The notes: generated by a model from the sequence alone, not told the origin. Shown: positions 3,318 to 29,539, numbered from the stretch's first letter. The stretch: DNA of 64,000 nucleotides from an uncultured Candidatus Saccharibacteria bacterium (GCA_964613485.1 CAZTHB010000001.1:21064-85063), one strand, 5' to 3'. Numbers and translations are program-made.

Positions 3318-3405
3318 TGGTGCCAGAGGTGGGAATCGAACCCACACGCGACCAAGTCGCACACGATTTTGAGTCGTGCGTGTCTGCCAGTTCCACCACT
3401 CTGGC
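3318..3405 (-). tRNA. tRNA-Leu (anticodon CAA) with long variable arm, CCA encoded
   Basis: The reverse complement gives GCCAGAGTGGTGGAACTGGCAGAC...CTCAAAA anticodon loop...long variable arm...GGGTTCGATTCCCACCTCTGGCACCA. The acceptor stem GCCAGAG/CTCTGGC is complementary. Confidence 0.8.
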
Positions 3406-9779: not shown

Positions 9780-9781
9780 GC

Positions 9782-10063
9782 ATGTCAAAGACGAAAGCTG
9801 GAGGGTCTACTAAGAACGGTCGCGATTCACGCGGCAAGCGCCTTGGCGTAAAGCTATACGGTGGCCAGGTAGCAAATCCTGGAGATATCATTATTCGTCA
9901 ACGCGGAGAAACATACGTAGCCGGTGAAAATACTTTTCAAGCAACCGACTACACCATTCACGCAGCCGCTGAAGGACGAGTAGCCTACAAGCAAATCAAC
10001 AAGCGTCGATTCACGGGCGCGCCACTGCGCAAAACCGTCGTCACCATCGACACCTCAGCGTAA
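9782..10063 (+). CDS. rpmA: 50S ribosomal protein L27
   Basis: GGSTKNGRDSRGKRLGVK...GDIIIRQRG is the L27 signature. Confidence 0.9.
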   Translation: MSKTKAGGSTKNGRDSRGKRLGVKLYGGQVANPGDIIIRQRGETYVAGENTFQATDYTIHAAAEGRVAYKQINKRRFTGAPLRKTVVTIDTSA

Positions 10064-12738: not shown

Positions 12739-12773
12739 CCCCATCAGCTCTTGGCTGGTGGGGATTATTTATT
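12739..12773. terminator. Intrinsic terminator-like hairpin between convergent genes
   Basis: ccccatcag...ctggtgggg stem (one mismatch) followed by attatttatt. Confidence 0.45.
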
Positions 12774-13998
12774 ACTGTCGCGCTAGTTCGAGAGCTTTAT
12801 CCAGCTGTGGGTCGCGGTTTGCATTATAGTCATCATTCGTTAGCTTCACTTCAACGTCCGGCGCGATACCTTCCTTGGATATATTCACGCCCTTCGGCGT
12901 ATACCAATGCGCAACCGTAATCTTGAGCTGTGCCCCATTCGCAAGCTTACGCACCTCCTGCACACTCCCCTTGCCAAATGACTTCTCGCCAACCAATGTC
13001 GCGCGGCCATTGTCCTTAAGCGCACCAGCCGCTATCTCTGAAGCTGAAGCCGACCCCTGGTTAATCAAAACTATGACTTTCACCTTTGTGAGATTACCGC
13101 CCGGATTAGCTGTCATTGTCTTTGAGTCTGAGAAATGGCGACTGCGTTCTTCGACGATCGTACCGCTCCCCACAAACTCAGACGAAACCGAAACTGCTCC
13201 ATCAAGATATCCACCCGGGTTGTCTCGCAGATCAAGAATAACACTCTTCACGCCCTTCGAAGCTAACTCAGCCGCGGCATTACGAAACGCGAGTTCAGTA
13301 TCATCTCCGAAGCGTCGTAAGCGAATGTAGCCGACATCACCTTCCTTGATAGTAGTAGTTACGCTCGCGACCGTTATCGTATCGCGCACAATCGCAATCT
13401 CACGAGGCTTTTCCGTGCCACGCAAGATAGTCAGGGTAACTGTGGTTCCTTTATCCCCGCGGATATTCTTAACCGCTTCATCAAGCGTAAATTGGGAGCT
13501 ATCCTTACCATCGATAAGTGCAATAATATCTCCAGCCCGCACACCAGCCCTAGATGCTGGCGCCCCATCAATTGGCGCGATGATCGTCAAACGATTATTT
13601 TTGATGCCCACTTCTACCCCAATACCACTCAACTCACCCTTCAGATCATCCGATAGATCCTTTGATTCTGCTGCATCCATGTAAGTGGTGTAGGGGTCAC
13701 CTAGACTTGCAACCAATCCTCGAATTGCTCCCTCAGCCTGCTTCGAGGTATCAATATCGCCATCATAGCTTTGTTTGAGCATCTCACGGACAGTCGCGAT
13801 GTCATTCGCGGCGAAGGTACCATCGCGCAATATAACTGATGAACGCGATGACCAGCCAATAAGTGTGCCGATGACAAGTGCACCAACCACGATACCGACA
13901 CGCTGTAGCCAGGCGCTCTGTGATGCTGTTTTCTGCTTTGGAGCAGCTTTTTGCGAAGTAGATCGTGTTGGAGTCATAAGCCCTATTGTACTGGTCAA
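12772..13998 (-). CDS. ctpA: Carboxy-terminal processing protease (S41 family, PDZ domain)
   Basis: GYIRLRRFGDDTELAFRNAAAEL...VILDLRDNPGGYLDGAVSVSSEF; N-terminal TM anchor. Confidence 0.85.
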   Translation of the reverse strand: MTSTIGLMTPTRSTSQKAAPKQKTASQSAWLQRVGIVVGALVIGTLIGWSSRSSVILRDGTFAANDIATVREMLKQSYDGDIDTSKQAEGAIRGLVASLGDPYTTYMDAAESKDLSDDLKGELSGIGVEVGIKNNRLTIIAPIDGAPASRAGVRAGDIIALIDGKDSSQFTLDEAVKNIRGDKGTTVTLTILRGTEKPREIAIVRDTITVASVTTTIKEGDVGYIRLRRFGDDTELAFRNAAAELASKGVKSVILDLRDNPGGYLDGAVSVSSEFVGSGTIVEERSRHFSDSKTMTANPGGNLTKVKVIVLINQGSASASEIAAGALKDNGRATLVGEKSFGKGSVQEVRKLANGAQLKITVAHWYTPKGVNISKEGIAPDVEVKLTNDDYNANRDPQLDKALELARQ

Positions 13999-14041
13999 GC
14001 CTTATACCTGCCAAGTAGTAGAGCTATCAGTTTGTTTTCAA

Positions 14042-15160
14042 CTAATGGATGTAGGTCAGTACATTTGCCGGCCACAAAGACTGACTATAGCGGCCATCCC
14101 AGTTTGCGTTGAACTCCGACACCAGCACCTGCTGCCCATCTTTGAGCACCGACTCAACGATCATGACATGCCCATATTCACCGCCACCATACACACCGAT
14201 CGCTCCAACCTCGGGCTGATCGTCAACCCGCATATTAAATTGTCGGCCCCAATTCGACCAGGTTTTTGCATCTGCTGGCCCCATAAATCCCCAAGAAGGA
14301 ATTGGTTTTCCGAGGTTCGCACGACGCCATGCCGCGAAGCTTGTACATTGACGGTAATAAAAGCCCCATGGGTCAACTCCCCAGCTCGGAAATGGCTCGA
14401 CAGAAGCCCACGGATAGTCAGTGGTAGAAGTATACGTGCGCCCTGCACTCTGCGCCGCAATTGCTGCTGCCTGCTGAGCGCGCAGGGTATTAAGCTGAGC
14501 CTGGTCTGACTTCACCATCTCACGATATTTCTGTTCTTCTCCACGAGTTGCTTCCAGAAGTTGTGCGAGCTCGCTTTCTTTTTCAGCAATACCTTTCTCT
14601 TGCAGCTTCTCGGCGTTTTCCTTGATACGCAAATCAATCTCGAGACTATCAAGCTGCTTTTTTGTGCGCTCTATATCATCAAGCGTCTGATTAATCTTCT
14701 CACGCAATGAGTTAATATACTGCTGCTTATCTACATACTGGCTAAGGTTTTGTGACCCGGCTATCAGCTCAAGCGGCGTAACAGCACCTTGTCGGTACAC
14801 AACAGCGATATTCTCGCCGAGGAGATCAGTCTGCTTCTTAAGCTGTCGTTGCACTTCAGACTGACGAGCCTTGTTCTGGCTCACTTGAAGACGTGTCATT
14901 TCGAGATTCGCACGAGCCGCAGCGAGGTCGGCGCGTACTGCCTCGAGCTTGTTTTGCAGCGTATCGCCCTCAGCCTGCTTCTGCTTGACGAGAGCTTGCT
15001 TATCTTGGATCTGCTTGGACAGCGCATCAATGAGCGGCTGATATTCATCCGCGCTCACGCGCCTATGTCCGACCATCATCAATACACCGAGCAGCATAAC
15101 GCTCAAAACAGATACGCCTAGAAGATGCTTGAGCCAGGGATGATGTCGTTTTTGTTTCAT
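14042..15160 (-). CDS. Coiled-coil / CHAP-domain peptidoglycan hydrolase (PcsB/RipC-like), copy 1
   Basis: Signal peptide, about 200 aa of coiled coil, then a CHAP domain with Cys (YRQCTSFAAWR) and His (GHVMIVESV). Confidence 0.75.
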   Translation of the reverse strand: MKQKRHHPWLKHLLGVSVLSVMLLGVLMMVGHRRVSADEYQPLIDALSKQIQDKQALVKQKQAEGDTLQNKLEAVRADLAAARANLEMTRLQVSQNKARQSEVQRQLKKQTDLLGENIAVVYRQGAVTPLELIAGSQNLSQYVDKQQYINSLREKINQTLDDIERTKKQLDSLEIDLRIKENAEKLQEKGIAEKESELAQLLEATRGEEQKYREMVKSDQAQLNTLRAQQAAAIAAQSAGRTYTSTTDYPWASVEPFPSWGVDPWGFYYRQCTSFAAWRRANLGKPIPSWGFMGPADAKTWSNWGRQFNMRVDDQPEVGAIGVYGGGEYGHVMIVESVLKDGQQVLVSEFNANWDGRYSQSLWPANVLTYIH

Positions 15161-15185
15161 GTTTTTGTATGGGCCAATAAATTAC

Positions 15186-16250
15186 CTATCGAATGTAGCG
15201 AACGCCCCCAAGTTGACTAAACGGAATGGTGCGAGTGGAGTACCCGCCACGTGGACTGTAGTTGTACTCGCTAATCGTAATCGACGAACCATTATTGGAT
15301 TCGACAATCGCAACATGTCCCCACGGTGATTGGTTGCCGTATGGCCAGGCAACGATATCACCATACTGCGGCGTAAGGCTAGCCGAACCACGATACCACC
15401 AGTCGCCAGCGTTACCCCAATACATCGGAGCCCAACGACCCATTGCCGCCCGCTTCCACGCTGCATAGCTCACGCACTCGCGGTTGTAGTACCCGTAGTC
15501 ATCGACAAGGCTGTCTTGAGCTGCCAAGCACCATACATTTGGATAGCCACCGCCACACTGGCCACCCGGACGAAAGCTCCCGCCTGCGGCCGTATTACGG
15601 GCTATCTCTGCCGCGCGAGCCGCAAAGACCGAATCCAGCTGCTGCTTATTCTTCGCAATCATCCCCTGGTAAGCAGCTTCCTGCCCCTTCGTCTCAGCTA
15701 AGAGCCTAGCTTGTTCTGCTTTCTTCGCACTAATCTGAGCTAGTTGCCCCTGTTGATTCTCTTTTTGGGCAGACAAATCAGCTTTAGCCTGTTCCAGCTT
15801 GACCTTAGTAGCATTGATCGCATCAATGTTGGACTGGATCTTCGCCTTGATGTCTTGCAAGTATTGTTGTCTACCCACAAAATCACTCAGGTTCTGACTC
15901 GAAGCCAACACCTCAAGCGGTGTGAGATCGCGGTCTTTATACATGACGCGAAGATTTTCACGCAGGCTATCAGTCTGCTTGGCCAACTCCGTAGTATTTG
16001 CCTCGATATCGGCTTGCGTTTTTTGTAACTGAGTCTGAGTAAGATTAAGCGCGGCTTGAGCAGCAGCGATTTCGGCATTGAGCTGCGTAACTTTGCCCTG
16101 CAGCGTAGATGCTTCTGCAGCCTTTTGACTCGCTGCTGACTGATTTTGCTTTATTTGTGACTGGAGCGCATTGATCTGCTCATCATAATTTATCGCATAC
16201 GCAACAGACGCATTTCCGACTAATGTAAGTGCAGAAACGATAACGAGCAC
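15186..16250 (-). CDS. Coiled-coil / CHAP-domain peptidoglycan hydrolase (PcsB/RipC-like), copy 2
   Basis: Same architecture as copy 1: NRECVSYAAWKR ... GHVAIVESN. Confidence 0.75.
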   Translation of the reverse strand: MLVIVSALTLVGNASVAYAINYDEQINALQSQIKQNQSAASQKAAEASTLQGKVTQLNAEIAAAQAALNLTQTQLQKTQADIEANTTELAKQTDSLRENLRVMYKDRDLTPLEVLASSQNLSDFVGRQQYLQDIKAKIQSNIDAINATKVKLEQAKADLSAQKENQQGQLAQISAKKAEQARLLAETKGQEAAYQGMIAKNKQQLDSVFAARAAEIARNTAAGGSFRPGGQCGGGYPNVWCLAAQDSLVDDYGYYNRECVSYAAWKRAAMGRWAPMYWGNAGDWWYRGSASLTPQYGDIVAWPYGNQSPWGHVAIVESNNGSSITISEYNYSPRGGYSTRTIPFSQLGGVRYIR

Positions 16251-16348
16251 GCGCTTAACGTGCTTCTCAAGTGTAACTATATTCAGGGTCCCCTCCTTTT
16301 GTTTGCGCCAATCCTAAAATGCGCTAATGCCAGTATAGCTTATTGATC

Positions 16349-17260
16349 TCACAGTTTCAAATGGCGTGAGATGGCGAGGTAGCTCGAGGTTGTGCCGATA
16401 AACATGCCAAGTGCATACATACCGGTAATCACGAGATTATACCGAGCCGAAACAAAATCAATCACATCCGTTGTGCTGAAATAATTCACAAACAGCGGCT
16501 TAGCGAAGTTAAGAGACGGAATGGCAATTGCGATCGCGATGGTCGCACCAATAATCCCATATACCGCTCCCTCGACAAGAAATGGACCCCGGATATACCA
16601 CTTAGTAGCGCCGACCAGCTTCATGATGTCGATCTCTTCGCGGCGTGTGAAAATCGCCATGCGGATAGTGTTAAAGATAATAAGTAACGACACGATCAAA
16701 AACGCAACTGAGATGATCGTACCGATACGACTCACCCCTTGCGAGATTTTATTTATATTCTCGACTACCTGTTTACGGACATTATTATCCTGCAGACTGG
16801 TCTGAGTGATGGCGCTTGCCTCAGGCAAGGTACGGATCTTCGCGTCAAGCGTAGCAAGATCATCGAGAGAAGTTGTTTTGACCTCGATGGAAGCAGGTAG
16901 CGGATTGCCAATTTCTTCGGCCGTCCGCGCTAACTGCTCCCCATCCTTACTACTCTCACGTAGGCGCTCGAGTGCATCAGCCTTAGAGATATAAGTGACA
17001 TTTTTGACATTCTCAAGCCCCTTAATTTCCTCTTGAAGCTTTGTCACGTCTTCCTGCGAAGCCTTCTCGCTTAAGAATACCGTCAGATCAATTTTGTCAC
17101 GAATAACTGCCAGCTGGTTTTGTAAGAAAAGCGCTGAAAACGAGAATACTGACACGATCACGAGGGTAATAACCATAATCGCAGTGGCCGCGATCGACAA
17201 CCAAGCATTACGAAACAGGTTCTTAAACCCGGACTTGATGATGCGCAAGAAAGTAATCAT
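16349..17260 (-). CDS. ftsX: Cell-division ABC transporter permease-like protein FtsX
   Basis: Four TM helices with a large extracellular loop. Immediately downstream of ftsE, overlapping its stop by 1 nt. Confidence 0.8.
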   Translation of the reverse strand: MITFLRIIKSGFKNLFRNAWLSIAATAIMVITLVIVSVFSFSALFLQNQLAVIRDKIDLTVFLSEKASQEDVTKLQEEIKGLENVKNVTYISKADALERLRESSKDGEQLARTAEEIGNPLPASIEVKTTSLDDLATLDAKIRTLPEASAITQTSLQDNNVRKQVVENINKISQGVSRIGTIISVAFLIVSLLIIFNTIRMAIFTRREEIDIMKLVGATKWYIRGPFLVEGAVYGIIGATIAIAIAIPSLNFAKPLFVNYFSTTDVIDFVSARYNLVITGMYALGMFIGTTSSYLAISRHLKL

Positions 17261-17949
17261 TAGAGTATATACCTTCCGACTTTTTCGTCTTTCACAATCC
17301 GTCCTCGCTGAATAGTAATCACGCGACGCTTCAAGGCATTCACAATCTCTTTGTTGTGCGTCGTAAGCAATACAGTCGTACCAAACTTATTGATCTTCAA
17401 GAGCAGCTCGATAATATCCCATGAGTTCTTGGGGTCGAGATTACCGGTTGGCTCATCGGCAATCAGGATCTTTGGATTGCGCACCAAAGCCCGCGCGATC
17501 GCCACACGCTGCTTCTCTCCACCCGATATCTCGCCTGGATAATTACTCGCCTTCTCAGCCAGCCCTACTAACTGCAAGATTTTCGGGACAGCACGACGTA
17601 TCTCGCTCGTACGCACCCCACTCACTTCAAGCGCAAAGGCAACATTCTCATATACAGTGAGATTTGGTAGTAGCTTGAAGTCCTGGAAGACCACCCCAAT
17701 GCGGCGACGCAAATGAGGGATATTTTTCTTCGTGATCGTATCGTAGTCGATCGAGCCCACGATGATCTTTCCACTTGTCGGGTCTTCTTCTTTAATAAGT
17801 AAACGAATGAGTGTGGACTTACCTGCTCCAGATGAACCCACTACCGTCACAAATTCTTTTGGTTGAATATGCAAACTAACGCCGCTCAAGGCGACGGTCT
17901 TGTTTGGATACATAACTGTAACACGGTCTAGCAAAATCACTGCAGTCAT
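17260..17949 (-). CDS. ftsE: Cell-division ATP-binding protein FtsE
   Basis: Walker A GSSGAGKST, ABC signature LSGGEKQR, Walker B ILIADEPTGNLD. Confidence 0.85.
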   Translation of the reverse strand: MTAVILLDRVTVMYPNKTVALSGVSLHIQPKEFVTVVGSSGAGKSTLIRLLIKEEDPTSGKIIVGSIDYDTITKKNIPHLRRRIGVVFQDFKLLPNLTVYENVAFALEVSGVRTSEIRRAVPKILQLVGLAEKASNYPGEISGGEKQRVAIARALVRNPKILIADEPTGNLDPKNSWDIIELLLKINKFGTTVLLTTHNKEIVNALKRRVITIQRGRIVKDEKVGRYIL

Positions 17950-19253: not shown

Positions 19254-20351
19254 CTAGTCTGTCGTGCCGATCTGTTTCGTGAGATACGCTTCGATAAACG
19301 GCTCAATCCCACCCGACAGGACGCCGTCAGTATCGCTTGTCTCGTAATCTGTGCGATGATCTTTGACTTTTTGATATGGATGCAATACGTACGAGCGAAT
19401 CTGCTGACCCCAGTCGGCCGAGGTGAGTTTACCGCGCAGCTCAGAAATTGACTCAAGATGCTGCTCACGGGCAAGATTTGCCAGGCGAGCTGCAAGAATA
19501 CTCATGGCTTTAGTTTTATTCTTCAGTTGTGAGCGCTCATTTTGAATGCTTACAACAATACCAGTTGGAAGGTGTGTGATACGCACGGCTGAATCTGTCG
19601 TATTCACACTCTGACCACCATGCCCACCAGCACGAAAGACATCGATACGGAGGTCTTTTTCGTCAAGTTCGACCTCCTCCATCGGAATCTCAGGTACGAC
19701 ATCGACCAGTGCGAAGCTTGTTTGACGTAGATTATCGCTATTGAAAGGGCTGAGACGCACTAAGCGATGCACGCCTTTCTCACTCTTAAGCTTACCGTAA
19801 GCGAATGGCCCACTAATCTCTAGTGTAGCGGACTTAATACCAGCTTCTTCGCCTCGAGAGATGTCAATCAATACCGCGTTCAAATCAAGCTTCTCGGCCG
19901 CCCGTGTATACATCGTCAGAAGCATCTCTGCCCAATCCTGAGCATCGGTGCCACCCACGCCAGCTGAGATCTGAATAATCGCCGGCGACTTATCGTATGG
20001 TCCGGATAACTTCACCGTCAGCATCATATTCCGAACAGACTCGGCCATACTATCTGTCGTTTCGCGAAACGCCTTCATGAGTGATTCTTCGTTCGGATCA
20101 GACATTTGGGCGAGTTCTAGGTTTGTCTTAATCGACTCCTCAATCACATCCCAGCTTTCGATAAACTTACGCAATAAGGCCGCCTCTCGACTCACCCGCT
20201 GTGCCTCTCCCTGGTCAGACCAAAAACCAGGCGCATTCATACGCGCCTCAAGCTCTTCAAGTACTTTTTGTTCAGACTGCAAATGAAGCTGCTCTTTTGC
20301 AGCCTGCACTTCTTCGAGAAGGTTTGTCAATTGGTCAATGATTGGTTTCAT
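19254..20351 (-). CDS. prfB: Peptide chain release factor 2 (uninterrupted, no programmed frameshift)
   Basis: SPF tripeptide (RLSPFNS) and the GGQ motif ([17 protein letters not shown]). Confidence 0.85.
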   Translation of the reverse strand: MKPIIDQLTNLLEEVQAAKEQLHLQSEQKVLEELEARMNAPGFWSDQGEAQRVSREAALLRKFIESWDVIEESIKTNLELAQMSDPNEESLMKAFRETTDSMAESVRNMMLTVKLSGPYDKSPAIIQISAGVGGTDAQDWAEMLLTMYTRAAEKLDLNAVLIDISRGEEAGIKSATLEISGPFAYGKLKSEKGVHRLVRLSPFNSDNLRQTSFALVDVVPEIPMEEVELDEKDLRIDVFRAGGHGGQSVNTTDSAVRITHLPTGIVVSIQNERSQLKNKTKAMSILAARLANLAREQHLESISELRGKLTSADWGQQIRSYVLHPYQKVKDHRTDYETSDTDGVLSGGIEPFIEAYLTKQIGTTD

Positions 20352-20482
20352 AACGATATGTTTCGAATACGTTTATTTACAATAGATTATAGTATACCCC
20401 ATATACCAAAAAAGCCGCCGAGCAAATGCTCATACGGCCTTTCTGTTGCACACCTCGTCTAGAGGCGATGGTTTTCACCAGC

Positions 20483-21682
20483 TTATTGGTTGCGAAGTGC
20501 GCTTGTCAGAGCCTTGCGGCTACGACGGTAGAAGTAACCTGCATAGGTCAACCCGGTTGTACCGAGAAGACCAGCTGCAGCCCCTTCAAGACCAGTCTCC
20601 GGCAGGCTTGTACCTGTTCCGCCAGTAGTTGGCGTAGTAGGAGTTACTGTTGGAGTAGGATTACAGCGGCTATCGCCTACTGGAATACCTGGCTTACATT
20701 CCTGTGGTCCTGCGACCGTTACCTTGGTGTGAGCTTCAGCAAACTTCATTTGTTCGCCAACCTTTACACCTGCAACGTTCTTCAGGTCGTAATTACCTGG
20801 CTTAAGCTTAGAATCAATCTTAGCCTGATACAGTACGTACCCTACAGCACCTGGAGCATAATCGCCGATATTGATACCGCCCTTAGTGAGGCCATCAGAG
20901 ACAGCCACAGCATCAGGATGGTTACCATTGGCAAGCTTGGTGCTTCCCTGAACGTAAGTTACGTTTGCAGGAAGCGTATCTGCAATCTGAACGTTCTTCA
21001 AGACAGTGTTACCACCGTTTTGGAACTTGATGCGATACTCAAGCGTATCACCAGACTTAGCAGTGTTCTCGGTAACCCAGTCTTTTTGACCAAGTACGCG
21101 GACTTGCTTCGAAATACCAACAATGTCGGTCTTCACACGAAGCTTAACAGTGATTGTAGCTTCGAAGTTAAAGCAAGGCTTTGCGTTCTCGAGGACAACT
21201 CCACCATTCAAGAGCGCTTGCTCCTGAGCTGGGGTGAGGCCTTCAGTTACCCAGTTTGGCTGCTCGTTGGTGCCTTTGTTGTGACGCCACATAGCGGTAC
21301 CAGGAACCATTTCGAGATAGCTGTTGTCTGGAGCGAGATTGACGGTAGCATTGGTGTTTACAGTGTTACCATTGTCGGCACTAATCGTGCCGTTGATTTT
21401 TTGAATTTTGCCAGCAGCAGTTGGAAGCTGCAATTTGGCCTTGAGGTTTTGAGCGACTTTTCCGCTGTCAGCATTCTCCATGTTGTGATACCACAACTGA
21501 ACCTGGACAGTTTCATCAGTCTTTGCATTGGTGCTTGCATTGTACATTTGTTCACCGGCCGAAGCGTTTGCAACACCGAGACGTGATTCGAGACGAACCG
21601 TGTCAGTAGCATGCGCAGCAAGCGGGGTGAGTACGAGACCAGCAGCCAGAACTACATTACGTAGCTTAGTAAGCAGTGTCAT
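20483..21682 (-). CDS. LPXTG-anchored cell-surface protein (sortase substrate)
   Basis: N-terminal signal peptide MTLLTKLRNVVLAAGLVLTPLAAHA. C-terminal LPETG, a hydrophobic segment and a RRSRK tail. Confidence 0.8.
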   Translation of the reverse strand: MTLLTKLRNVVLAAGLVLTPLAAHATDTVRLESRLGVANASAGEQMYNASTNAKTDETVQVQLWYHNMENADSGKVAQNLKAKLQLPTAAGKIQKINGTISADNGNTVNTNATVNLAPDNSYLEMVPGTAMWRHNKGTNEQPNWVTEGLTPAQEQALLNGGVVLENAKPCFNFEATITVKLRVKTDIVGISKQVRVLGQKDWVTENTAKSGDTLEYRIKFQNGGNTVLKNVQIADTLPANVTYVQGSTKLANGNHPDAVAVSDGLTKGGINIGDYAPGAVGYVLYQAKIDSKLKPGNYDLKNVAGVKVGEQMKFAEAHTKVTVAGPQECKPGIPVGDSRCNPTPTVTPTTPTTGGTGTSLPETGLEGAAAGLLGTTGLTYAGYFYRRSRKALTSALRNQ

Positions 21683-21872: not shown

Positions 21873-21953
21873 TATATTTTGTCTCGTTTTTAAGTGGGTG
21901 TGGCAGCTCAGGATATCTTGATGCTGCGCACAATCTGTAAATAAAAAAGAATG

Positions 21954-21984
21954 GGGGCCGAGCGCTTGCGCGCTCGGCCCCGGG
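21954..21984 (-). terminator. GC-rich intrinsic terminator at the left edge of the GC-rich island
   Basis: Perfect 12-bp stem ggggccgagcgc/gcgctcggcccc with loop ttgc. On the minus strand it is followed by attctttttta. Confidence 0.65.
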
Positions 21985-22028
21985 TTTGAACCTGAACATA
22001 CAGCCGAGTCGGAAGGGTCTTCCCCTAC

Positions 22029-23087
22029 TTAGCAGTATGCAGGCGGATTGGCCGTCTGACAGGGGTCACCCACTGCCGGCGGGTCGGTCGTCACCGGCGC
22101 CTCGGGAGGCGGGGTGGGAGCGAAGCTCACCGGAGGGGTCGCCCCCGGCGGGATGGTGGATCCCGGCACCGTCGTCCCCGGGTTGTAGCCCGGAGTCGGC
22201 GGCAGCGTCGAAGGCGGCTGGTACGGCGGGGTGCTGACGTCGCCACCACCACCACACACCCAGACGCCACCGACCAGCTTCCACCCCTTCTCACACTTCC
22301 AGGCCGTCGTCGTCGGGGACGGCGGCACGGTGGTGCTCGAGGGTGTCGGTGGGACGGTGGTCGACGGAGTCGTCACGGTAGCCGGAGGCTTCGGCACGGT
22401 CGGGGGCGGCAGCTTGGGCTGCCTGGGCGACGGCGGCGTGGTCTTCGGCGGGACAGCCGGCGGGAACGATTGCTCCACCGGTTGGAATCCGCAGTCGAGC
22501 TTGAGGTTCTTCACACCCTGGGGCGTGTCGAATCTCAGCACCGCGAAGGACGGCTTGTCCGGAGAGGCGTTGTACACCTCCGGGATCTGTCGTCCCTCGG
22601 GAACCATGTAGAGGGTCTTGTAAGCACCCTTCACGGTCTCGATGCGCGGGTTGCCCTGCGCGACCGCGTCGGTCACTGCCAGAATCGTGAGGCGCCAGGC
22701 CTCCTGGTTCTGGATCAGATTGGCCGTCTTGTCGACACGCTCGTCCGGAGACGAGAAGGCGCCCGTGATGTACTCCTGCAGTGCGACCGCCAGAGCGGGG
22801 TCGGTGCAGAGGCGCCTCTTCAGCTCGACCTGAGCCTGCGAAGCCTCCTCGGGAACAGCAGGACCGAAGCGATGACCGCCAGCGTCCTGAGCCCAGAAGT
22901 AGACCCCGTTCACACAGGTCTGTTCCCCACCGGGGTTGGCCGTTGTGGTGGTCGTTGTGGTGGGTTCGTCGGCACGGGGATTGTCGTCCCCGCTTGCCTC
23001 CTTCGCGGCGAGGACGCCACCGAGGAGCAGAAGTGCGCTGAAGAACAGCGCCATGATCGTGATGACTCTGCGTTGCATGAGCATCAT
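22029..23087 (-). CDS. Secreted Pro/Thr-rich protein with Cys-containing ends (island gene c)
   Basis: Signal peptide LFFSALLLLGGVLAA, a TTTTTT and PT-rich linker, GC3-rich codons. The start is probably the internal ATG at 23078, 9 nt after the AAGGA SD. Confidence 0.6.
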   Translation of the reverse strand: MMLMQRRVITIMALFFSALLLLGGVLAAKEASGDDNPRADEPTTTTTTTANPGGEQTCVNGVYFWAQDAGGHRFGPAVPEEASQAQVELKRRLCTDPALAVALQEYITGAFSSPDERVDKTANLIQNQEAWRLTILAVTDAVAQGNPRIETVKGAYKTLYMVPEGRQIPEVYNASPDKPSFAVLRFDTPQGVKNLKLDCGFQPVEQSFPPAVPPKTTPPSPRQPKLPPPTVPKPPATVTTPSTTVPPTPSSTTVPPSPTTTAWKCEKGWKLVGGVWVCGGGGDVSTPPYQPPSTLPPTPGYNPGTTVPGSTIPPGATPPVSFAPTPPPEAPVTTDPPAVGDPCQTANPPAYC

Positions 23088-23142
23088 TCCTTTCGGTTCG
23101 AGTGTTCAGGTTCGGAGTTTTTACGTTTTTACACAACCTATT

Positions 23143-23158
23143 GATGAGCATGCTCATC
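23143..23158. promoter_or_regulatory. Perfect 16-bp palindrome GATGAGCATGCTCATC in the AT-rich region upstream of island gene c
   Basis: Self-complementary when read directly. Candidate operator for a dimeric regulator. Confidence 0.4.
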
Positions 23159-23181
23159 CACAGGAGAATGAAAAAACTTGT

Positions 23182-23210
23182 TTGGTGAGGGTCCGAAGAC
23201 CCCCACCAAA
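23182..23210 (-). terminator. Intrinsic terminator of island gene b
   Basis: ttggtgagggtc-cgaa-gacccccaccaa stem (one mismatch) with a T-tract on the minus strand. Confidence 0.5.
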
Positions 23211-23230
23211 CGTACTGACGAGAAGCCAGA

Positions 23231-24103
23231 TCAGGAGGAACTACGCGCTCCGGCCGAGGCCGAAGCACCGACCGCCACCCTGGGTTGCACCTGAGTCGGC
23301 GTGCCACCCCCACCGGAAGGCGAGGTGGTGACCGAGGCAGGTGCCGGCGGTGCCGGAGTGGTACCCGTCGAGGCCGAAGCACCCGCAGCTGCGGTGACGG
23401 CGGTCGAGGAATCCCCCGACCGCACACCGAGCACGTGAGCGACGATCACGACAAGCACCGTGAACAGGCCGGCCAGACCGAGCTGATTCGGCCTGTTCCA
23501 CTCCTCCAAGAGCATGGCGATGATCCACCAGCTGATGAAGAAGGTCCCGATCGTGAGCCCCGCGAAGAGCGCCCAGCTGATACCGCTCGAATCCGAGCGG
23601 ATGCTGGCGATGGCCTTGGCCATCGCGCTGTGCTGGGAGTCCAACCGGTTCAGTGTCGGATCGACGATGTCGTGTCGCCACGACTTGATCGCCTTGAGCG
23701 ACGCATCGTGGGCCTCGACCTGCACCTCCACGGCGAGCAGACGATCCGAGAAGGACTGGATCTGCTCCTGAGCGGACCTGGCCGCGTTCTGGGCGACCAA
23801 GAGGTCGTTGGCGAAGGCGTCGGACTTCTTGACCTTGGCCTCGAGATCGTTGACGCGCTGGTCGAGGAAGGCGATGGTAGCCACCTTCTCATTCAGCTCG
23901 TCGAGCTGCTGCCGGAAGGCAGCATCGGAGGTACGCGACTGGAGGCCGCTGATCTCCTTCTGGATCTGTGGGATCAGCTCGCCCCGCATGTTGTCGGACG
24001 AAGCAGCCAGGATGGCGACGAGCTTCTTGAGCTGGTCGACATCGGCGCGCAACGCCGGTACGAGTCGCCGATCGGTGACAGGTGTGGAAATCGGGTGTGT
24101 CAT
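23231..24103 (-). CDS. Coiled-coil membrane protein with two TM helices and a Ser/Thr/Ala/Gly/Pro-rich tail (island gene b)
   Basis: Heptad-like N-terminal half, hydrophobic segments ISWALFAGLTIGTFFISWWIIAMLL and LGLAGLFTVLVVIVAHVLG, GC3-rich codons. A TTGATT-17-TATGTT promoter and an AAAGGGG RBS lie upstream. Confidence 0.6.
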   Translation of the reverse strand: MTHPISTPVTDRRLVPALRADVDQLKKLVAILAASSDNMRGELIPQIQKEISGLQSRTSDAAFRQQLDELNEKVATIAFLDQRVNDLEAKVKKSDAFANDLLVAQNAARSAQEQIQSFSDRLLAVEVQVEAHDASLKAIKSWRHDIVDPTLNRLDSQHSAMAKAIASIRSDSSGISWALFAGLTIGTFFISWWIIAMLLEEWNRPNQLGLAGLFTVLVVIVAHVLGVRSGDSSTAVTAAAGASASTGTTPAPPAPASVTTSPSGGGGTPTQVQPRVAVGASASAGARSSS

Positions 24104-24220
24104 GGTTCCCCTTTTGTGGAGGTTCGTTCTCGTCCCCTATTGAAACGAGAGATACCCCAACATACCATACTTTCATAAAAAAATCAATACCTTTACCAAG
24201 CATAAGTGGTGTAATTAAGA

Positions 24221-24257
24221 AAAAAAACAGGGTACCTGGCCCGAAGGCCAGGTACCC
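24221..24257 (-). terminator. Intrinsic terminator of island gene a
   Basis: Perfect 12-bp stem gggtacctggcc-cgaa-ggccaggtaccc followed on the minus strand by tgtttttttt. Confidence 0.7.
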
Positions 24258-24275
24258 GTGTAGCTAACACGTACG

Positions 24276-25967
24276 TCAGCTATACATTCCTGCCAGAACG
24301 TCCGCCACCGAAGCAGTGGGGTTCTCGCGGTAGAAGTCGACAGCCGACCGATACGTGGCCTCCTGGACGCCGACGGCAACGAGCACCGGCGGAGCCTGTG
24401 GAGGCTGATCGTTCGGAGCCTGGTCGTCGGAGCCATCTGCGCCTTCCGGCTCGATGATTTCGGCGACTTCAGCCTCAAGCGCATCGCTCGCGGGCTCATC
24501 ACCCGTCAGCTCTGCATCAGCCTGCCAGTCGAAGACCGGCTCGGCATCAGCTGTGGTAAGAGCAGCTGCATCCGGCCGGTCAGCAGAGTCGTCAGAACCT
24601 TCGGGTTCGTCTGTCTCTGCCTGCCAGTCATAGGGCCTATCGGTGGACGAGCCATCCTCTCGAGTGATGCGAACACCACCTCCAGGTAGGCTGCCAACGC
24701 TCTTGACTGGCGCCGGCGGAGTGGTCACGTTCCCGGTCGAGAACAGACTCTCCACGGGTTCCGAGGCCGATTCACTACCGGCCTGATCGTGATCCGGCCT
24801 CGCGGCCGAATCACCCGACCGTGCAGCCCTGCGAGCTGCCTTGACGGCCGCCTTGGTACGAGCATCCCAGCCCTCGTCCGACTCACCTTCGAGCCGGACG
24901 AGGGTCTCCCCCGTACGATGCACTCGGAACTGACGCTCGGGGTCGAGCACTTCAGCTTCGGATGAACCGTCACCGGAGCCAGCGTCAACCGGCTCGGCCC
25001 CTTCGGAACCCTTGTCGGGCTCCGGAGAAACAGGATCGTGCTGTGTGACCGGCAGGGGTGGCGGCGAAGGTAGGGTGGCCTCCACCTCGCGAGAACGAGG
25101 CTCGCGGGTACGCTCCGGCTTCGGCTTGGTGCCGGGCCAGAACCACTCCGCGAGGAACTCCTCGGGCTCGCGCTCCTCCCTGGACATCCAGAAGGCAGTG
25201 GTATAGTACCAGGCCTTCTTTCTCAGGTCCGCATCTGCATCGAGCTCTTCTCGAGACGGTGAATAGGCTTCATCGCCCTTGCCGATCCTGAAGAGACGAT
25301 CTTCGTCCACGCCGAGCTTCATGCCCAGGGTGTAGATCTGATTCGCCAGCTCCATGATGTCCTCACCACCGTAGTTGCGAGCCATCACGATGTGCTCCAT
25401 CAGCTGCGCCTTGGCTTCCTCGACCGTCAAGCGGACCGACGAGACCAGGACGGCAGCTTCATCCGACCCTTCGGCGCCCTCTTCGGGCACCTCGGGTTCG
25501 GCGATGATGGAATGCGCGGTGGCGACCCACTCAGCAACCGCCTCACGAAGCTCCTTGCGAGCCTGCGTGGCGGCAGTGATGAGCATCTGGTCACCACCCG
25601 AGATCTCGGAGGCATACCAGTCGCGAATCCGCTGCAGCGCAGCTCCCGCGTCGGGATCGATACCAGCTGCGATGAGCTGATCGATCATGTCCCTGACGAG
25701 GATCCGTCGCGGCTTGTCGTCGCCAGAAACACCAGAAGCGGTGCCTTCGGAATCCGTAGCCGGCTCGGCGGCGTCATCCGTCTCAGACGGCTCGGCGGCT
25801 GGATCTGTCGAATCGGAGTCCCCCGACTCGTCTTCGATCTCGGCACGAGGCATGAACGAGATGACCTGAGCGAGTGCCGGGTCATCCTCGTCACCCTTGG
25901 TGAACAGGTCTGGCGACAAGTCCTCGAAGGACCTGAGGATACGAGTATTCATGGGTCGGGGAGACAT
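24276..25967 (-). CDS. Highly acidic hypothetical protein, 563 aa (island gene a)
   Basis: Strong SD AGGGAGGAG 4 nt before the ATG. GC3 is about 65% versus about 45% in the flanking genes. D/E/P/A-rich with no recognisable catalytic motif. Confidence 0.6.
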   Translation of the reverse strand: MSPRPMNTRILRSFEDLSPDLFTKGDEDDPALAQVISFMPRAEIEDESGDSDSTDPAAEPSETDDAAEPATDSEGTASGVSGDDKPRRILVRDMIDQLIAAGIDPDAGAALQRIRDWYASEISGGDQMLITAATQARKELREAVAEWVATAHSIIAEPEVPEEGAEGSDEAAVLVSSVRLTVEEAKAQLMEHIVMARNYGGEDIMELANQIYTLGMKLGVDEDRLFRIGKGDEAYSPSREELDADADLRKKAWYYTTAFWMSREEREPEEFLAEWFWPGTKPKPERTREPRSREVEATLPSPPPLPVTQHDPVSPEPDKGSEGAEPVDAGSGDGSSEAEVLDPERQFRVHRTGETLVRLEGESDEGWDARTKAAVKAARRAARSGDSAARPDHDQAGSESASEPVESLFSTGNVTTPPAPVKSVGSLPGGGVRITREDGSSTDRPYDWQAETDEPEGSDDSADRPDAAALTTADAEPVFDWQADAELTGDEPASDALEAEVAEIIEPEGADGSDDQAPNDQPPQAPPVLVAVGVQEATYRSAVDFYRENPTASVADVLAGMYS

Positions 25968-26111
25968 AGTCTCCTCCCTTCTGTGGTCGTAGTCGAAATG
26001 TAATGGTGCAAAAACACTTCCCCATCAGAGGAGCGTCTGAGTAAAAGTAACATATTTTTGCTAATTGGTCAATGCCTAACACCTCGTCTCGACAAAGACG
26101 GAATCAAAAAT

Positions 26112-26139
26112 ACTTAGCACGCTTACTAGTGTACTAAGT
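26112..26139. promoter_or_regulatory. Imperfect inverted repeat ACTTAGCAC-N10-GTACTAAGT upstream of island gene a
   Basis: 8/9 arm complementarity, in the AT-rich spacer between the 117-aa gene stop and the island gene a start. Confidence 0.3.
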
Positions 26140-26162
26140 ATTCTATGAAACTAACGTGTTGA

Positions 26163-26516
26163 CTATTGAGCGGTGGCGCGGGCCTGAGCCTGTCGCATCA
26201 CTGCTTGCTGATCAGCTACGAGATTGTTCTCAACTTCGATCACCGTCTTCGCCAGGATCTCATCGAAGTCAGGCAATCTATCACGCAAAGCCTGCTCTAC
26301 TTGATCGCCAGATCCAGCGTCAATCAACCCCTCGATATAGGCCATATCGGTTTCGGATAGTCGCTCAGCTGCCTGGTTGATGACGCTCGAGATTACAAGC
26401 TGACTCATCTGATCTGCAAGCTGCTGCTTTTGTTCTTCGGTTGCCTGTGCCATACCGAGGCGTGTAAATACATCTTGGCTCGGCTGGACGGTTGGGTTTT
26501 GCGTGGTTTGGTCCAT
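26163..26516 (-). CDS. Small acidic helical protein (117 aa), hypothetical
   Basis: ORF 24 nt downstream of the 999-aa gene on the same strand, so probably co-transcribed. Confidence 0.5.
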   Translation of the reverse strand: MDQTTQNPTVQPSQDVFTRLGMAQATEEQKQQLADQMSQLVISSVINQAAERLSETDMAYIEGLIDAGSGDQVEQALRDRLPDFDEILAKTVIEVENNLVADQQAVMRQAQARATAQ

Positions 26517-26539
26517 AGTATTCTCCTTAAATTACCTTT

Positions 26540-29539
26540 CTACCGCAATGTGCCAGCACGTAACATAGCCTTGAGACTATCTACCGACTGCCCTTGCTTA
26601 ATTAACTCAGCGATGCGACTTGCGTTATTGAGGACTGCCTCCTGACCCTCTACGATACGCCCCCCAAGAGGAATAGCGTGCTCGTTTGAGAGGTCTCCAG
26701 TCAACTGATCAAATACCCTAAACTGTTCGGCGTCCGTAAATCCGAGCTTCGGCCGAATCTTATCAATATCCTTCAGAAGCTCTGGATTAAAGCCAGTTGG
26801 AGGACTTGCCTCACCTGCCTGAACCTTATCAATCCACTTAAATAGGTTCATTGTACGCTCATCAGCTTGAGCTTGGGAGATACCAAATTCATTCGGACCG
26901 CTAGCTCGTGCACCTTGGAAACGTGCTTCATCGGGTGACGGTATACGTGGCCCTGAAGGTGGCCCTGGATCACCGGTTGGTGGCTGCGGATCACCAGTCG
27001 GTGGTTTTGGGCGACCCCCGCCACCGTTGCGCAAGAAGTACCCGCCAACCACTGATGCCACACCGGCGACTACACCGGCGATCTTAGCTGTACGAGCCGA
27101 TTTCGCATCACGACTCATCCGCTCCATCTGATCTTTGAGTAGTGCACTCGTAATTTCAGCTGCTTTCTCAGTATCCCCAGCTAATATCTTATTCAGACTC
27201 TCCGGCCCAAACAAAGCTTGGTTATTCTTCGTCATAAACTCCTGGAATGCCTTCGGGTCACGGACATCTAAGCCCTGTTCTTGTGCCTGATTGGCTGTGT
27301 ATTCAATATCACCCTTGTAGCTATCTCCCATCTCGGCATTAGCTTGCTTCATCTCGCCGCGGTTGCGGAATTTCTCACGCCAGCCATGACCGATATTCCA
27401 TGCACCCTCGACCCCCATGAAAGCACCCACGCCGCGCATCGCCGCAGCACCACCAGCCATGATGATACCCGGCACTCCACCAAGAGCGAGCCCACCGGCC
27501 GCAAGCCCAACACCAATCGCAAGACGAGTCTTCGGATGCGCCTTCCACCAGTTGCGCAACTTACCGGCAAACTTTTCGGACTTGACCTCTGTTTGAGCTT
27601 CTTCGACCCTTGTACGGAGCTGTGAGAGCTCAAGAGCTAGCGCAGTCTGGAGTTCAACTGGGAATTTCTCAAGTCGCGCAATCTCAGTATCGATATCAGT
27701 AATCTGAGCCATGAGTTCAGCTTCGCGATCAGTGTCGCCAGCCGTACGGGCTCGTTCAAGCTCACGAGTGAACGTCGCCTTGGTTGCCTCTGCAACACCC
27801 TTGGCATACTCCGCATCCTTCAGCGCCTTACCCGAGGTCTCACCTGCATCAGTGAGGAACTGAGCGTAAACATCTTCCACATCAGACTTAGCAGCCTCAA
27901 ACGCCTCAACGCGCCTACCGCCCAAAACTAATGCTTCACGAGCATCTTTCGCCTCGGCTAACTTTCGAATCGCATCGTTTACTTTTTCACTATGAAGCGC
28001 GAAGATACCATCGACAGTTGGTCGGACAAAAGTACCAGGCTCCTTGTCTGAGTCATCTTCTGGCTTCTCTGGATCCTCAGGTGGCGTTGGGCCTTCCGGG
28101 CCTGGGTCCTCTGGTGGTTTTGGCGGCTCCGGAGGAGTTGGTTCGCCAGGACCGAATGGAGGCTTCGAGTAATCAATAAATGGCGTTACTTCATCGCTAT
28201 CCTCTGGTGTAGTAGGAGTCTCGGTTGGTACGGCCGGCTTAGACTGCCAGAAGTTCTCCTGCATATCCGCGTCAGACTCCGTGGCCTGCTGCCACTTCTC
28301 TTGCGTCTGCTCAAAGGCTGGGCTCTTATAAACATCTTGAGCTTGCTGTGCGGTATAGTAGGCTTCGTTATGCCGTACTCGCGACATTGCTTCCTCAGTA
28401 TCGAGCGCAAATTGCCGCGTAGAGTTGAGTTCGCGTAATATTAACCCATCGCGCTCTCCTTGTGATGGACCAACTACTGAGTACTGCTTGGTTTCACCAT
28501 CAGCAGTCGTATAGCTGACCACTTCGTTTGGCTGATACCCAGACTGTGCTTCACTTCTACTTGGAGTCGTAGCTTCGGCCTGCGCAGTATCTGCAGGAGC
28601 CTCTGCAGTCCCACCGTGCATTTGCTGTGCAAAAGCAGTTGCACGCTCACCATAGCTTCGTGCAGCATCGGCGTTATTTCTGATCTCTTCAAGCTCGGAG
28701 CTTAATGTCTCGCCTTGTGATTGCCCTTGAGCCTGCTCGTCCTCTGAACCCCTATTTACTTCGCTATCCGGCATGATTTTCGTTTCCTCTAATGCTTTTG
28801 TTCCATCATATACATCCGCCCCTCTTGCCGTCAATCCACCTTGTACATTGAGGCGCTGATAATCCTCATCATTAGGCTCGGCATCACGACGGTCTTGTTG
28901 GCGTTCCAGACGACGCTCCACACGGCGCTCATAGCTAATATCACGCGGAGAGGACGCTACCGGAGCAGACGCAGGGGTGGGGGTGGGAGTTGGTTCAGCT
29001 GACGTAATCTCGCCGGTCCAAAAATCAGAACCCACACGTACCAAGCCAGATCGAACTGCAGGCATTACATACGTTACGTAGTCCTCTATCCTTACGCCCT
29101 CTGCACGATACTGCTCTTTTGCCTTATCATATCCAGGTAAGCTTTTCAGAAAATGAGAGATTTCCCGATTCGACATTTTGCGAAAGTCAGGCCTAACATA
29201 GTGCTCTGCTCCAGGCTTAACGCGTCCGGTTCGTTTATCGAGTGCGCGAAGCGACTGACGATATTCCCCATCTGCATCGATGAAAGCGCGCTCTTCTCGC
29301 TTCACCGTATCTGCGAGACCCTGCATATCCGATTCATCACTAACGGCTAATAATTCTGGGTTGGAGAGGTCATCTTCATGTGTCTGCGTGAGTGCCATGA
29401 GCGCATCGCGACGCTGCCGTGCGACGTCTGTAATCCGTCTCGGATGATCAACCGGAAGCTCCTCAACTGAATCTCGAGATTGTTCACCTCTATGCTGACG
29501 ACTCATATTGCCTCCAAGATAACAGTAGTAATTATGCAC
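26540..29539 (-). CDS. Large (999 aa) hypothetical protein with Pro-rich linkers, coiled coil and Gly-zipper-like hydrophobic segments
   Basis: No N-terminal signal peptide. PTPTPTP and PEPPKPPEDPGPEGP linkers. Gly-rich hydrophobic helices LAIGVGLAAGGLALGGVPGIIMAGGAAAM and IAGVVAGVASVVGGYFL, then a GDPQPPTGDPGPP segment. Confidence 0.6.
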   Translation of the reverse strand: MHNYYCYLGGNMSRQHRGEQSRDSVEELPVDHPRRITDVARQRRDALMALTQTHEDDLSNPELLAVSDESDMQGLADTVKREERAFIDADGEYRQSLRALDKRTGRVKPGAEHYVRPDFRKMSNREISHFLKSLPGYDKAKEQYRAEGVRIEDYVTYVMPAVRSGLVRVGSDFWTGEITSAEPTPTPTPASAPVASSPRDISYERRVERRLERQQDRRDAEPNDEDYQRLNVQGGLTARGADVYDGTKALEETKIMPDSEVNRGSEDEQAQGQSQGETLSSELEEIRNNADAARSYGERATAFAQQMHGGTAEAPADTAQAEATTPSRSEAQSGYQPNEVVSYTTADGETKQYSVVGPSQGERDGLILRELNSTRQFALDTEEAMSRVRHNEAYYTAQQAQDVYKSPAFEQTQEKWQQATESDADMQENFWQSKPAVPTETPTTPEDSDEVTPFIDYSKPPFGPGEPTPPEPPKPPEDPGPEGPTPPEDPEKPEDDSDKEPGTFVRPTVDGIFALHSEKVNDAIRKLAEAKDAREALVLGGRRVEAFEAAKSDVEDVYAQFLTDAGETSGKALKDAEYAKGVAEATKATFTRELERARTAGDTDREAELMAQITDIDTEIARLEKFPVELQTALALELSQLRTRVEEAQTEVKSEKFAGKLRNWWKAHPKTRLAIGVGLAAGGLALGGVPGIIMAGGAAAMRGVGAFMGVEGAWNIGHGWREKFRNRGEMKQANAEMGDSYKGDIEYTANQAQEQGLDVRDPKAFQEFMTKNNQALFGPESLNKILAGDTEKAAEITSALLKDQMERMSRDAKSARTAKIAGVVAGVASVVGGYFLRNGGGGRPKPPTGDPQPPTGDPGPPSGPRIPSPDEARFQGARASGPNEFGISQAQADERTMNLFKWIDKVQAGEASPPTGFNPELLKDIDKIRPKLGFTDAEQFRVFDQLTGDLSNEHAIPLGGRIVEGQEAVLNNASRIAELIKQGQSVDSLKAMLRAGTLR

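Follow-up and report, generated by a model that had tools for sequence, protein, structure and literature searches.

The DNA analysed here is a 64,000-nucleotide stretch from an uncultured Candidatus Saccharibacteria bacterium (GCA_964613485.1, CAZTHB010000001.1:21064-85063), called the window below, with all coordinates counted from its first nucleotide unless another contig is named, and our subject is a block of about 4 kb within it that holds three genes, which we call a, b and c, all on the minus strand. Gene a (24276-25967) is an open reading frame (ORF) for an acidic protein in which 122 of 563 amino acids (aa) are Asp or Glu and which has neither a signal peptide nor a transmembrane (TM) segment. 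Gene b (23231-24103) is an ORF of 290 aa, whose product has a coiled coil of ~165 aa at its N terminus, then two hydrophobic TM segments and a tail rich in Ala, Ser, Thr and Pro. Gene c (22029-23087) encodes a 352-aa protein with an N-terminal signal/anchor helix, a Thr-rich linker, an alpha/beta domain and Pro/Thr-rich, Cys-containing C-terminal regions. A preliminary description of this DNA, made from its nucleotides alone, had read the three products as a 563-aa acidic protein, a coiled-coil protein with two TM segments and a secreted Pro/Thr-rich protein, all of which is borne out, and had seen no motif that would place them in a family; searches of Pfam, NCBIfam, PHROG and PADLOC likewise assign none of them to a family (the matches of b are coiled-coil noise only). 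The measurements below show that this block is an old, vertically inherited three-gene cassette that is specific to Saccharibacteria (class Saccharimonadia) and is not foreign DNA, that in nearly every lineage its coding sequences alone are kept well above the genomic GC3, and that a GC-ward fixation bias is still acting.

The island is set apart by its base composition. Sliding GC steps from 0.42-0.46 to 0.65-0.73 within a single 150-nucleotide (nt) step at ~21950, and at the high-coordinate edge it falls from ~0.61 to 0.46 over 25800-26100 (0.46-0.52 at about 25950-26100). Computed gene by gene, the GC and GC3 (third-codon-position GC) values are 0.632 and 0.690 for a, 0.647 and 0.821 for b, and 0.669 and 0.810 for c. 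The flanking genes (the LPXTG gene, prfB, s117 (DUF5663), the gene for a 999-aa protein and secA) have GC 0.49-0.53 and GC3 0.45-0.56, with GC3 at 0.45 in the immediately neighboring LPXTG and 999-aa genes. All remaining 1-kb bins of the window have GC values of 0.54 or less, and the island is the only such block in it. Atypical composition, the usual mark of a genomic island, is therefore present: GC3 is 0.69-0.82 in the three genes vs 0.41-0.64 in the other window genes (ORFs of at least 120 aa, maximum 0.64). The ~4-kb, sharp-edged, GC3-rich island of the preliminary description is thus confirmed by both the sliding and the per-gene values, which are not uniform across the window and leave the three genes standing alone, and its codon usage turns out to be more extreme than had been stated. 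The three genes use TTC 29 times and TTT never, AAG 38 times and AAA never, and ATC, ATT and ATA 41, 3 and 0 times, respectively; CAG makes up 92% of its pair, TTA is absent and GTA occurs once. Third-position A is 0.07 vs a background of 0.21, and AGG, a codon that is usually rare, increases from 4% to 18%, while GGT (43%), GCT (29%), GAT (40%) and also CGT are retained. The amino acid composition of the proteins is shifted to Ala and Pro and away from Ile, Lys and Asn. The spacers within the island have GC values of only 0.41-0.46, and are AT-rich as had been described.

These spacers carry unusually strong terminators. Gene a is followed by a hairpin at 24230-24257 (minus strand; 12-bp stem, UUCG loop and T8, conserved in L012/L014, where L-numbers denote related contigs or lineages compared with the window), gene b by one at 23180-23211 (minus strand; 14-bp stem, UUCG loop and T-run, the stem identical in L012/L014), and gene c by one at 21954-21981 (minus strand; 12-bp stem with 11 G-C pairs and GCAA loop, conserved in L011/L016), which forms the low-coordinate edge of the island. 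With stems of 12-14 bp and 8-11 G-C pairs, the three are stronger than any other terminator-like hairpin scanned in the window: the rest (~59 kb scanned) has three hairpins with at least 11 pairs and none with more than 7 G-C pairs. All three clean hairpin terminators that had been noted earlier are present, but the stem of the c terminator ends at 21981 and not at 21984; Rfam gave sub-threshold matches only, on this same hairpin. Predicted promoter-like elements lie 5' of gene a (TTGACC-17-TACTTT, 26044-26072, minus strand; TTGACC-17-TAGTTT in L012), with a small 5' hairpin downstream of it (26019-26032, minus strand), and 5' of gene b (TTGATT-17-TATGTT, 24159-24187, minus strand; identical in L012/L014). 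The latter had been noted earlier, as had the perfect 16-bp palindrome GATGAGCATGCTCATC, which we find at 23143-23158, between the b terminator and gene c. In L012/L014 this palindrome is replaced by a longer repeat with 13-nt arms, CCTGGTGATGAGC-TT-GCTCATCACCAGG, and in L011, L020 and L025 hairpins can be recognized by eye at the same position; it may be an operator and/or a 5'-leader RNA hairpin. The Shine-Dalgarno sequences of a, b and c are strong, and the terminator/promoter architecture is also seen in relatives. These features support a reading of the cassette as three monocistronic units that are insulated from one another and have AT-rich, conserved spacers with a regulatory role, so the earlier suggestion of three separately regulated transcription units holds in its structural sense (own terminators, conserved spacers). 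The DUF5663 gene 5' of the island also ends in a hairpin and T-run (26109-26142, AATACTTAG...CTAAGTATTTTT), and gene a therefore appears to be insulated on its upstream side as well.

The transcript of gene c has a pair of mutually complementary boxes, GAACCTGAACA in its 5' untranslated region (UTR; 23103-23113, minus strand) and TGTTCAGGTTC in its 3' UTR (21988-21998, minus strand). In 7 lineages (the window, L011, L014, L016, L020, L024 and L025) they can form 10-13 Watson-Crick pairs without a mismatch, and they show compensatory changes, for example GTATCTGAAC/GTTCAGATAC in L025. In an anchored alignment 81% of the cells are paired vs 22-37% when the partner is slid, and none of 500 shuffles gave a higher covariation score. 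We relied here on exact complementarity and covariation in place of whole-UTR duplex energies, which are uninformative when compared with shuffles because the GC-rich terminators dominate them. No such complementarity was seen for gene a or the flanking genes, and the b genes of the window and L025 have single 8-11 nt UTR matches that do not recur between lineages. The pattern suggests that the c mRNA has a long-range 5'-3' stem, which could be an RNase III-type processing site or could protect the ends of the message.

The compositional switch is sharp at either edge, as it would be if a high-GC fragment had been joined to a Saccharibacteria contig during assembly or binning, a possibility that the preliminary description had raised; is the island an artifact of this kind? 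The exact gene a protein occurs on at least 11 contigs from independent sequencing runs (these include SRR29476928, SRR12900980, SRR14932559, SRR35571891 and SRR11567520) and in NCBI assembly GCA_008012035.1, and their flanks are identical in order: big protein, DUF5663, a, b, c, LPXTG, prfB, murA and ftsEX. L001 overlaps the window for 12.7 kb, both junctions included, with 99.5% identity, and divergent species share the structure. Because identical junctions recur in independent runs, we regard a chimera as excluded with virtual certainty.

In about 20 lineages of Saccharibacteria the cassette occupies the same secA...prfB slot, in most of them between secA and prfB-murA-ftsEX, and an empty slot was never seen. 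Orthologues of gene a that are 45-56% identical to it lie at this locus, and their three genes have GC3 values of 0.73-0.80 between flanks of normal composition. A scan of 185,579 species (one genome each) found 18 c loci, all of them in Saccharibacteria/Patescibacteria metagenome-assembled genomes (MAGs). At every locus c is directly upstream of an LPXTG/DUF11 (CLIPPER) gene, and this pair persists at the non-syntenic loci L022, L031 and L034, where c is again GC-rich. Among 5.8 billion protein clusters, a, b and c have 4, 3 and 15 matches, respectively, and the protein matches with a fetched contig or a named source are all of Saccharibacteria type or from a bacterial MAG. A profile of a run against 1.84 billion representatives returned its own family, two weak metagenomic proteins and one spurious plant repeat protein; one weak metagenomic match of a sits on a contig that carries an L024-type c gene. 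No homologue of a, b or c outside Saccharibacteria/Patescibacteria was found in the 5.8 billion clusters, the 1.84 billion representatives or the 185,579 species genomes, and collections of phages, plasmids (both compared by DNA similarity) and IMG/VR viral contigs gave no match. The neighbor-joining tree of c is congruent with the prfB+ftsE tree, from which we conclude that descent has been vertical. Literature searches found no earlier description of this island.

How durable is the compositional contrast? Cassette GC3 is at least as high as flank GC3 in 21 of 21 lineages, clearly above it in 20 and with an excess of about zero in L039; the median excess is +0.27 and the maximum +0.49. The window and L012 have secA proteins that are 95% identical and flank synonymous divergence (dS) values of 1.0-2.1, which is saturated, and both cassettes have GC3 of ~0.76. 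Because the synonymous sites of the flanks are saturated, a legacy composition could not have lasted passively. The excess is about +0.1 in L041/L042, L024 and L027 and +0.47-0.49 in L035 and L038, and since the sister clades L035/L038 (+0.48) and L041/L042 (+0.10) differ this strongly, the strength of the bias must change over fairly short evolutionary distances. Equilibrium GC3 values calculated from polarized substitutions are 0.62-0.64 (window/L012 and L011/L016) and 0.80 (L035/L038) for the cassette, and 0.45 and 0.40 for the flanks. The noncoding parts behave differently: between the window and L012 the spacers are 80-89% identical, the alignable coding sequences (CDS) of the cassette 67-77% and the flanking sequence 79%.

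Recombination at the locus was followed in pairs of closely related strains. Between L011 and L016 identity is 100% in the flanks and drops to 58-98% over a tract (L011 7000-13140) that takes in the 3' half of the big gene, genes a and b, and the 5' end of c; L035 and L036 are alike except for the 3' part of a and the LPXTG gene (L035 5800-6800 and 9600-11900). Strain pairs with identical flanks thus diverge by 2-42% in mosaic tracts. We read these differences as strain-level mosaics, the alternative being co-assembly of mixed strains in these MAGs. The cassette of the window's own species has 2 single-nucleotide polymorphisms (SNPs) in 3.6 kb of CDS vs 4.5 per kb in the flanks, and with only these 2 SNPs the idea of a hypervariable locus in this species is unsupported. 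The b alleles of L012, L014 and L015 at first seemed mosaic, but the differences came from where the start codon had been called and from a 3-aa indel.

It is common practice to interpret compositional islands as transferred DNA, and this one, which is 13-18 GC points and ~30 GC3 points above its flanks, yet is inherited vertically class-wide, had likewise been suggested to have come recently from a high-GC donor (for instance an actinobacterial host) or to be a laterally mobile module. Had a 4-kb module arrived recently from such a donor (the host, its phage or a plasmid) and not yet drifted, one would expect what is in fact seen: strongly atypical GC and GC3, sharp borders, codon usage near that of a mycobacteriophage, and amino acids shifted to Ala/Pro from Ile/Lys/Asn. 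In being a block with sharp borders whose GC, GC3 and codon usage are all atypical, and in having surface-related genes of no assigned function, the cassette does resemble horizontally acquired genomic islands. It differs from them in lying at the same locus class-wide, in about 20 lineages, with a gene phylogeny that matches the species phylogeny. Same-locus homologues with the same contrast in lower-GC relatives contradict a recent acquisition; the preliminary description had itself named close homologs of all three genes at this locus in related low-GC genomes, with similar composition, as a result that would speak against it. The GC3 contrast also persists despite the saturation of the flank synonymous sites, and the spacers are genome-typical and conserved. 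There are no direct repeats at the borders and no integrase, the only tRNA (3318-3405) is not adjacent to the island, and all neighbors are conserved chromosomal genes; together with the lack of plasmid, phage or viral matches this argues against a mobile module. No relatives of a, b or c were found in Actinobacteria, and no donor homologue in any of the protein, genome, plasmid, phage and IMG/VR collections above, and we consider a recent transfer highly improbable. A single ancient transfer into the ancestor of Saccharimonadia, after which the GC-rich state decayed slowly and survived passively in some lineages, could account for a GC3 excess that ranges from ~0 to +0.49 among lineages like stages of decay. 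However, dS is 1-2 even between close species, so passive survival of a GC3 near 0.8 across the class is not credible, and the sister clades L035/L038 and L041/L042 differ by ~0.38. In addition, the cassette substitutions between L035 and L038 are balanced (32 from G/C to A/T, or strong to weak (S-to-W), and 33 W-to-S), which indicates an equilibrium near GC3 0.8 and not decay, and relatives of the donor were not found. An ancient transfer is, we think, very unlikely, though a little less so than a recent one.

What, then, maintains the GC-rich coding sequences of an inherited cassette? We favor selection on the coding sequence or mRNA of three insulated monocistronic units, because the effect is limited to the CDS, the terminators are exceptional, the leaders are conserved and have 5' hairpins, and gene c has a UTR clamp. 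Selection would keep the CDS GC-rich and leave the intergenic promoters, leaders and terminators AT-rich and well conserved, and its targets might be gene bodies that are AU-poor, nuclease-resistant or promoter-free, or alternatively a distinct codon set that serves regulation. The most serious competing explanation is GC-biased gene conversion (gBGC) at a locus that recombines unusually often, so that exchange between naturally competent bacteria drives W-to-S fixation at free sites. Such gene conversion reportedly operates in recombining bacterial genes, and the cassette is like those cases in that its equilibrium GC3 is raised where recombination mosaics are visible (L011/L016 and L035/L036) and in that all codon positions are affected, GC1+2 (GC at first and second positions) shifting with GC3; its codon table and pattern of A/T runs are also those of ordinary high-GC genes. 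On the other hand, the borders are sharp and CDS-limited in over 20 lineages, the recombinant tracts also cover the big and LPXTG genes, whose GC3 is nevertheless 0.45 or lower, the island spacers remain AT-rich, and the cassette of the window's species is less polymorphic than its flanks (above). Reported gBGC effects in bacteria amount to a few GC3 points and not to 30-49, so that the effect here would be an order of magnitude larger as well as absent from adjacent genes in the same tracts, and we judge gBGC to be an improbable cause, though one to be taken seriously. Very high expression of a, b and c with use of the genome's optimal C- or G-ending codons would agree with the strong Shine-Dalgarno sequences, the separate promoters and terminators, the CDS-confined codon deviation, the preference for C-ending codons for Phe, Ile, Asn, Tyr, His and Asp, and the retention of GGT, GCT and CGT. 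But genes of the same genome that should be abundantly expressed lack such a bias: GC3 is 0.49 in rpmA (the sole ribosomal-protein gene available), 0.51 in secA and 0.50 in MreB, and the glycolytic genes that adjoin the c-like gene of L022 have GC3 of 0.44. The rise of the usually rare AGG and the shift in GC1+2 are not expected of translational selection, and +0.3 to +0.49 GC3 plus the change at first and second positions far exceeds the usual expression-linked bias. In the proteome of the related Ca. Mycosynbacter amalyticus SecA ranks 28 and the visible top-40 entries are unmatched to a, b or c, although the accessions there were unmappable and its genome was unchecked for the cassette. Translational selection for high expression is accordingly a quite unlikely cause. 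A more speculative form of selection, which we consider possible but doubtful, is that the cassette is written in a second, GC-rich "codon dialect" that is kept as a regulatory device: AU-poor, promoter-free CDS, strong terminators, 5' hairpins and the c UTR clamp could together give insulated, long-lived mRNAs, or translation could be gated by tRNA supply, and in this way an ultra-small epibiont could maintain its surface machinery or control when it is made, for instance while moving from one host to another. In an extreme variant of this idea the actinobacteria-like codon usage would match the translation system of the host, for which the chance is at best very slim.

The proteins themselves are real but fast-evolving, as is clear from cassette dN/dS (nonsynonymous to synonymous rate) ratios of 0.2-0.5 vs 0.01-0.07 for most flanking genes and from the confidently modeled domain of c. 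Protein a (dN/dS 0.28-0.41) is mostly disordered in its AlphaFold2 (AF2) model, with a mean predicted local distance difference test (pLDDT) score of 48, a helical core at residues ~90-280 and short conserved beta segments; its conserved motifs are WYYxxAFWMSxEEREPEEF and RQFRVHxTG, it has no match in the PDB, and it is probably cytoplasmic and largely disordered. The architecture of b (coiled coil, two TM segments and low-complexity tail) is kept at the same position in 18 lineages. The alpha/beta domain of c (residues ~60-225) is modeled with pLDDT above 90 and has conserved Cys residues and the motif KLDCGFQPVEQ, and no structural neighbor of it was found in the PDB; c is predicted to be a signal-anchored extracytoplasmic protein that holds this domain on Pro/Thr-rich stalks. 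None of the three carries a sorting signal, and the cassette itself encodes no sortase.

The constant partner of the cassette does have such a signal. The gene at 20483-21682 (minus strand) encodes a 399-aa LPETG/CLIPPER surface protein with a signal peptide, a DUF11/CLIPPER isopeptide domain (Pfam PF01345, NCBIfam TIGR01451), a hydrophobic segment and a basic tail; the sorting signal ...SLPETGLEGAAAGLLGTTGLTYAGYFYRRSRK was read from its translation, its GC3 is 0.45, and it is the only gene at which all the features of a sortase substrate (signal peptide, LPXTG, hydrophobic segment and basic tail) were found. A sortase gene (3495-4763, plus strand; Pfam PF04203, 422 aa), which adjoins genes for a PEGA-domain protein and MreB, is 17 kb away from it, and this sortase likely anchors the LPETG/CLIPPER protein. 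The wider neighborhood includes ftsEX, two CHAP hydrolases, an S41 peptidase, murA, MreB and the sortase. Since the LPETG/CLIPPER partner is constant and the wider neighborhood is related to envelope and division, we infer that a, b and c together with the anchored CLIPPER protein form a fast-evolving, membrane-spanning envelope module at the cell surface.

We consider it probable, with real reservations, that all of this is to be explained by an inherited cassette which encodes an envelope module and whose ongoing, CDS-limited GC bias is due to selection on its CDS or mRNA. Several observations weigh against this explanation. The homology of a and b between distant lineages is established by position and architecture, not by sequence, and the envelope function is deduced solely from the protein features and gene neighborhood. 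The parsimony polarization behind the equilibrium GC3 values is biased by base composition and multiple hits. Across lineages, cassette GC1+2 rises with GC3 (rho 0.72), and the same covariation would be expected under a pressure that acts generally at the nucleotide level, biased gene conversion for example. The island codon table closely resembles that of an actinobacterial phage, mycobacteriophage L5. Finally, in comparisons with synonymous shuffles the observed/expected ratio of A/T runs is 0.1-0.44 in cassettes with a large GC3 excess vs 0.9-1.08 in the flanks, but this depletion had to be given up as a sign of specific selection since the high-GC genes of mycobacteriophage L5 give the same ratio, 0.39. 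Because the L5 genes share both the A/T-run ratio and the codon table, the cassette looks like genuine high-GC DNA.

If selection on these inherited genes is indeed the cause, they are among the strongest local bacterial cases of selection on synonymous sites or mRNA composition that we know of, and if the cause is biased gene conversion, it is by far the largest local prokaryotic effect known to us. In either case, detectors of horizontal transfer that rely on composition would flag this locus falsely. As three orphans tied to a sortase-anchored isopeptide-domain protein, a, b and c are candidates for a role in the envelope or host-contact biology of Saccharibacteria.

Sortase-dependent surface-protein and pilus loci of monoderm bacteria have LPXTG substrates with isopeptide/CLIPPER domains (PMC12617251), and the cassette is like them in that the gene constantly found downstream of it encodes an LPETG protein that has a DUF11/CLIPPER domain, and in that a sortase gene lies 17 kb away. 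It is unlike them in that none of a, b and c is a pilin, a sortase or a known assembly factor, and in that the domain of c is alpha/beta and not Ig-like. The Pam pilus operon of Saccharimonadia lies beside the ATP synthase genes, and each of its components, among them Ig-like donor-strand pilins and PapD-like chaperones, carries a signal peptide and has an Ig-like, chaperone-usher-like fold (bioRxiv 10.64898/2026.03.03.709456). Like the cassette it is a surface module of orphan proteins specific to the candidate phyla radiation (CPR) and belongs to the same bacterial class, but protein a lacks a signal peptide, b forms a coiled coil, the domain of c is alpha/beta and the context is secA-prfB; with locus and folds both different, the Pam operon was rejected as the identity of the cassette.

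Several other features of the window were noted. Upstream of the cassette (26163-29539, minus strand) are genes for a TM-containing 999-aa orphan and a 117-aa DUF5663 protein, which have normal composition and are conserved in most syntenic lineages. The region downstream of ftsEX, at 12772-17949, encodes a pair of CHAP-domain paralogues, both with a coiled-coil N-terminus, and an S41 (CtpB-like) peptidase, a set that is conserved in L020 and L024 and resembles, to judge by its domains, an FtsEX-controlled peptidoglycan hydrolase arrangement. In the interval 19710-21422 (the 3' part of the LPXTG gene, and prfB), ~45 clustered SNPs within 1.7 kb set the window apart from every one of the 7 other contigs of its species, and outside this interval the 12-kb overlap shows almost no differences; the interval looks like a recombinant tract in the window's strain.

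Because its third positions are poor in A, the island also has long spurious ORFs in other frames or on the opposite strand, for example 22291-23427 (minus strand) and 23285-24178 (plus strand). Gene callers do mis-annotate the cassette locus: in L022 the public gene call at 8895-9908 is an antisense ORF (337 aa, with a first-position GC, GC1, of 0.89) that lies over the real b-like gene, which is at 8919-9812 on the plus strand and has a GC3 of 0.94.

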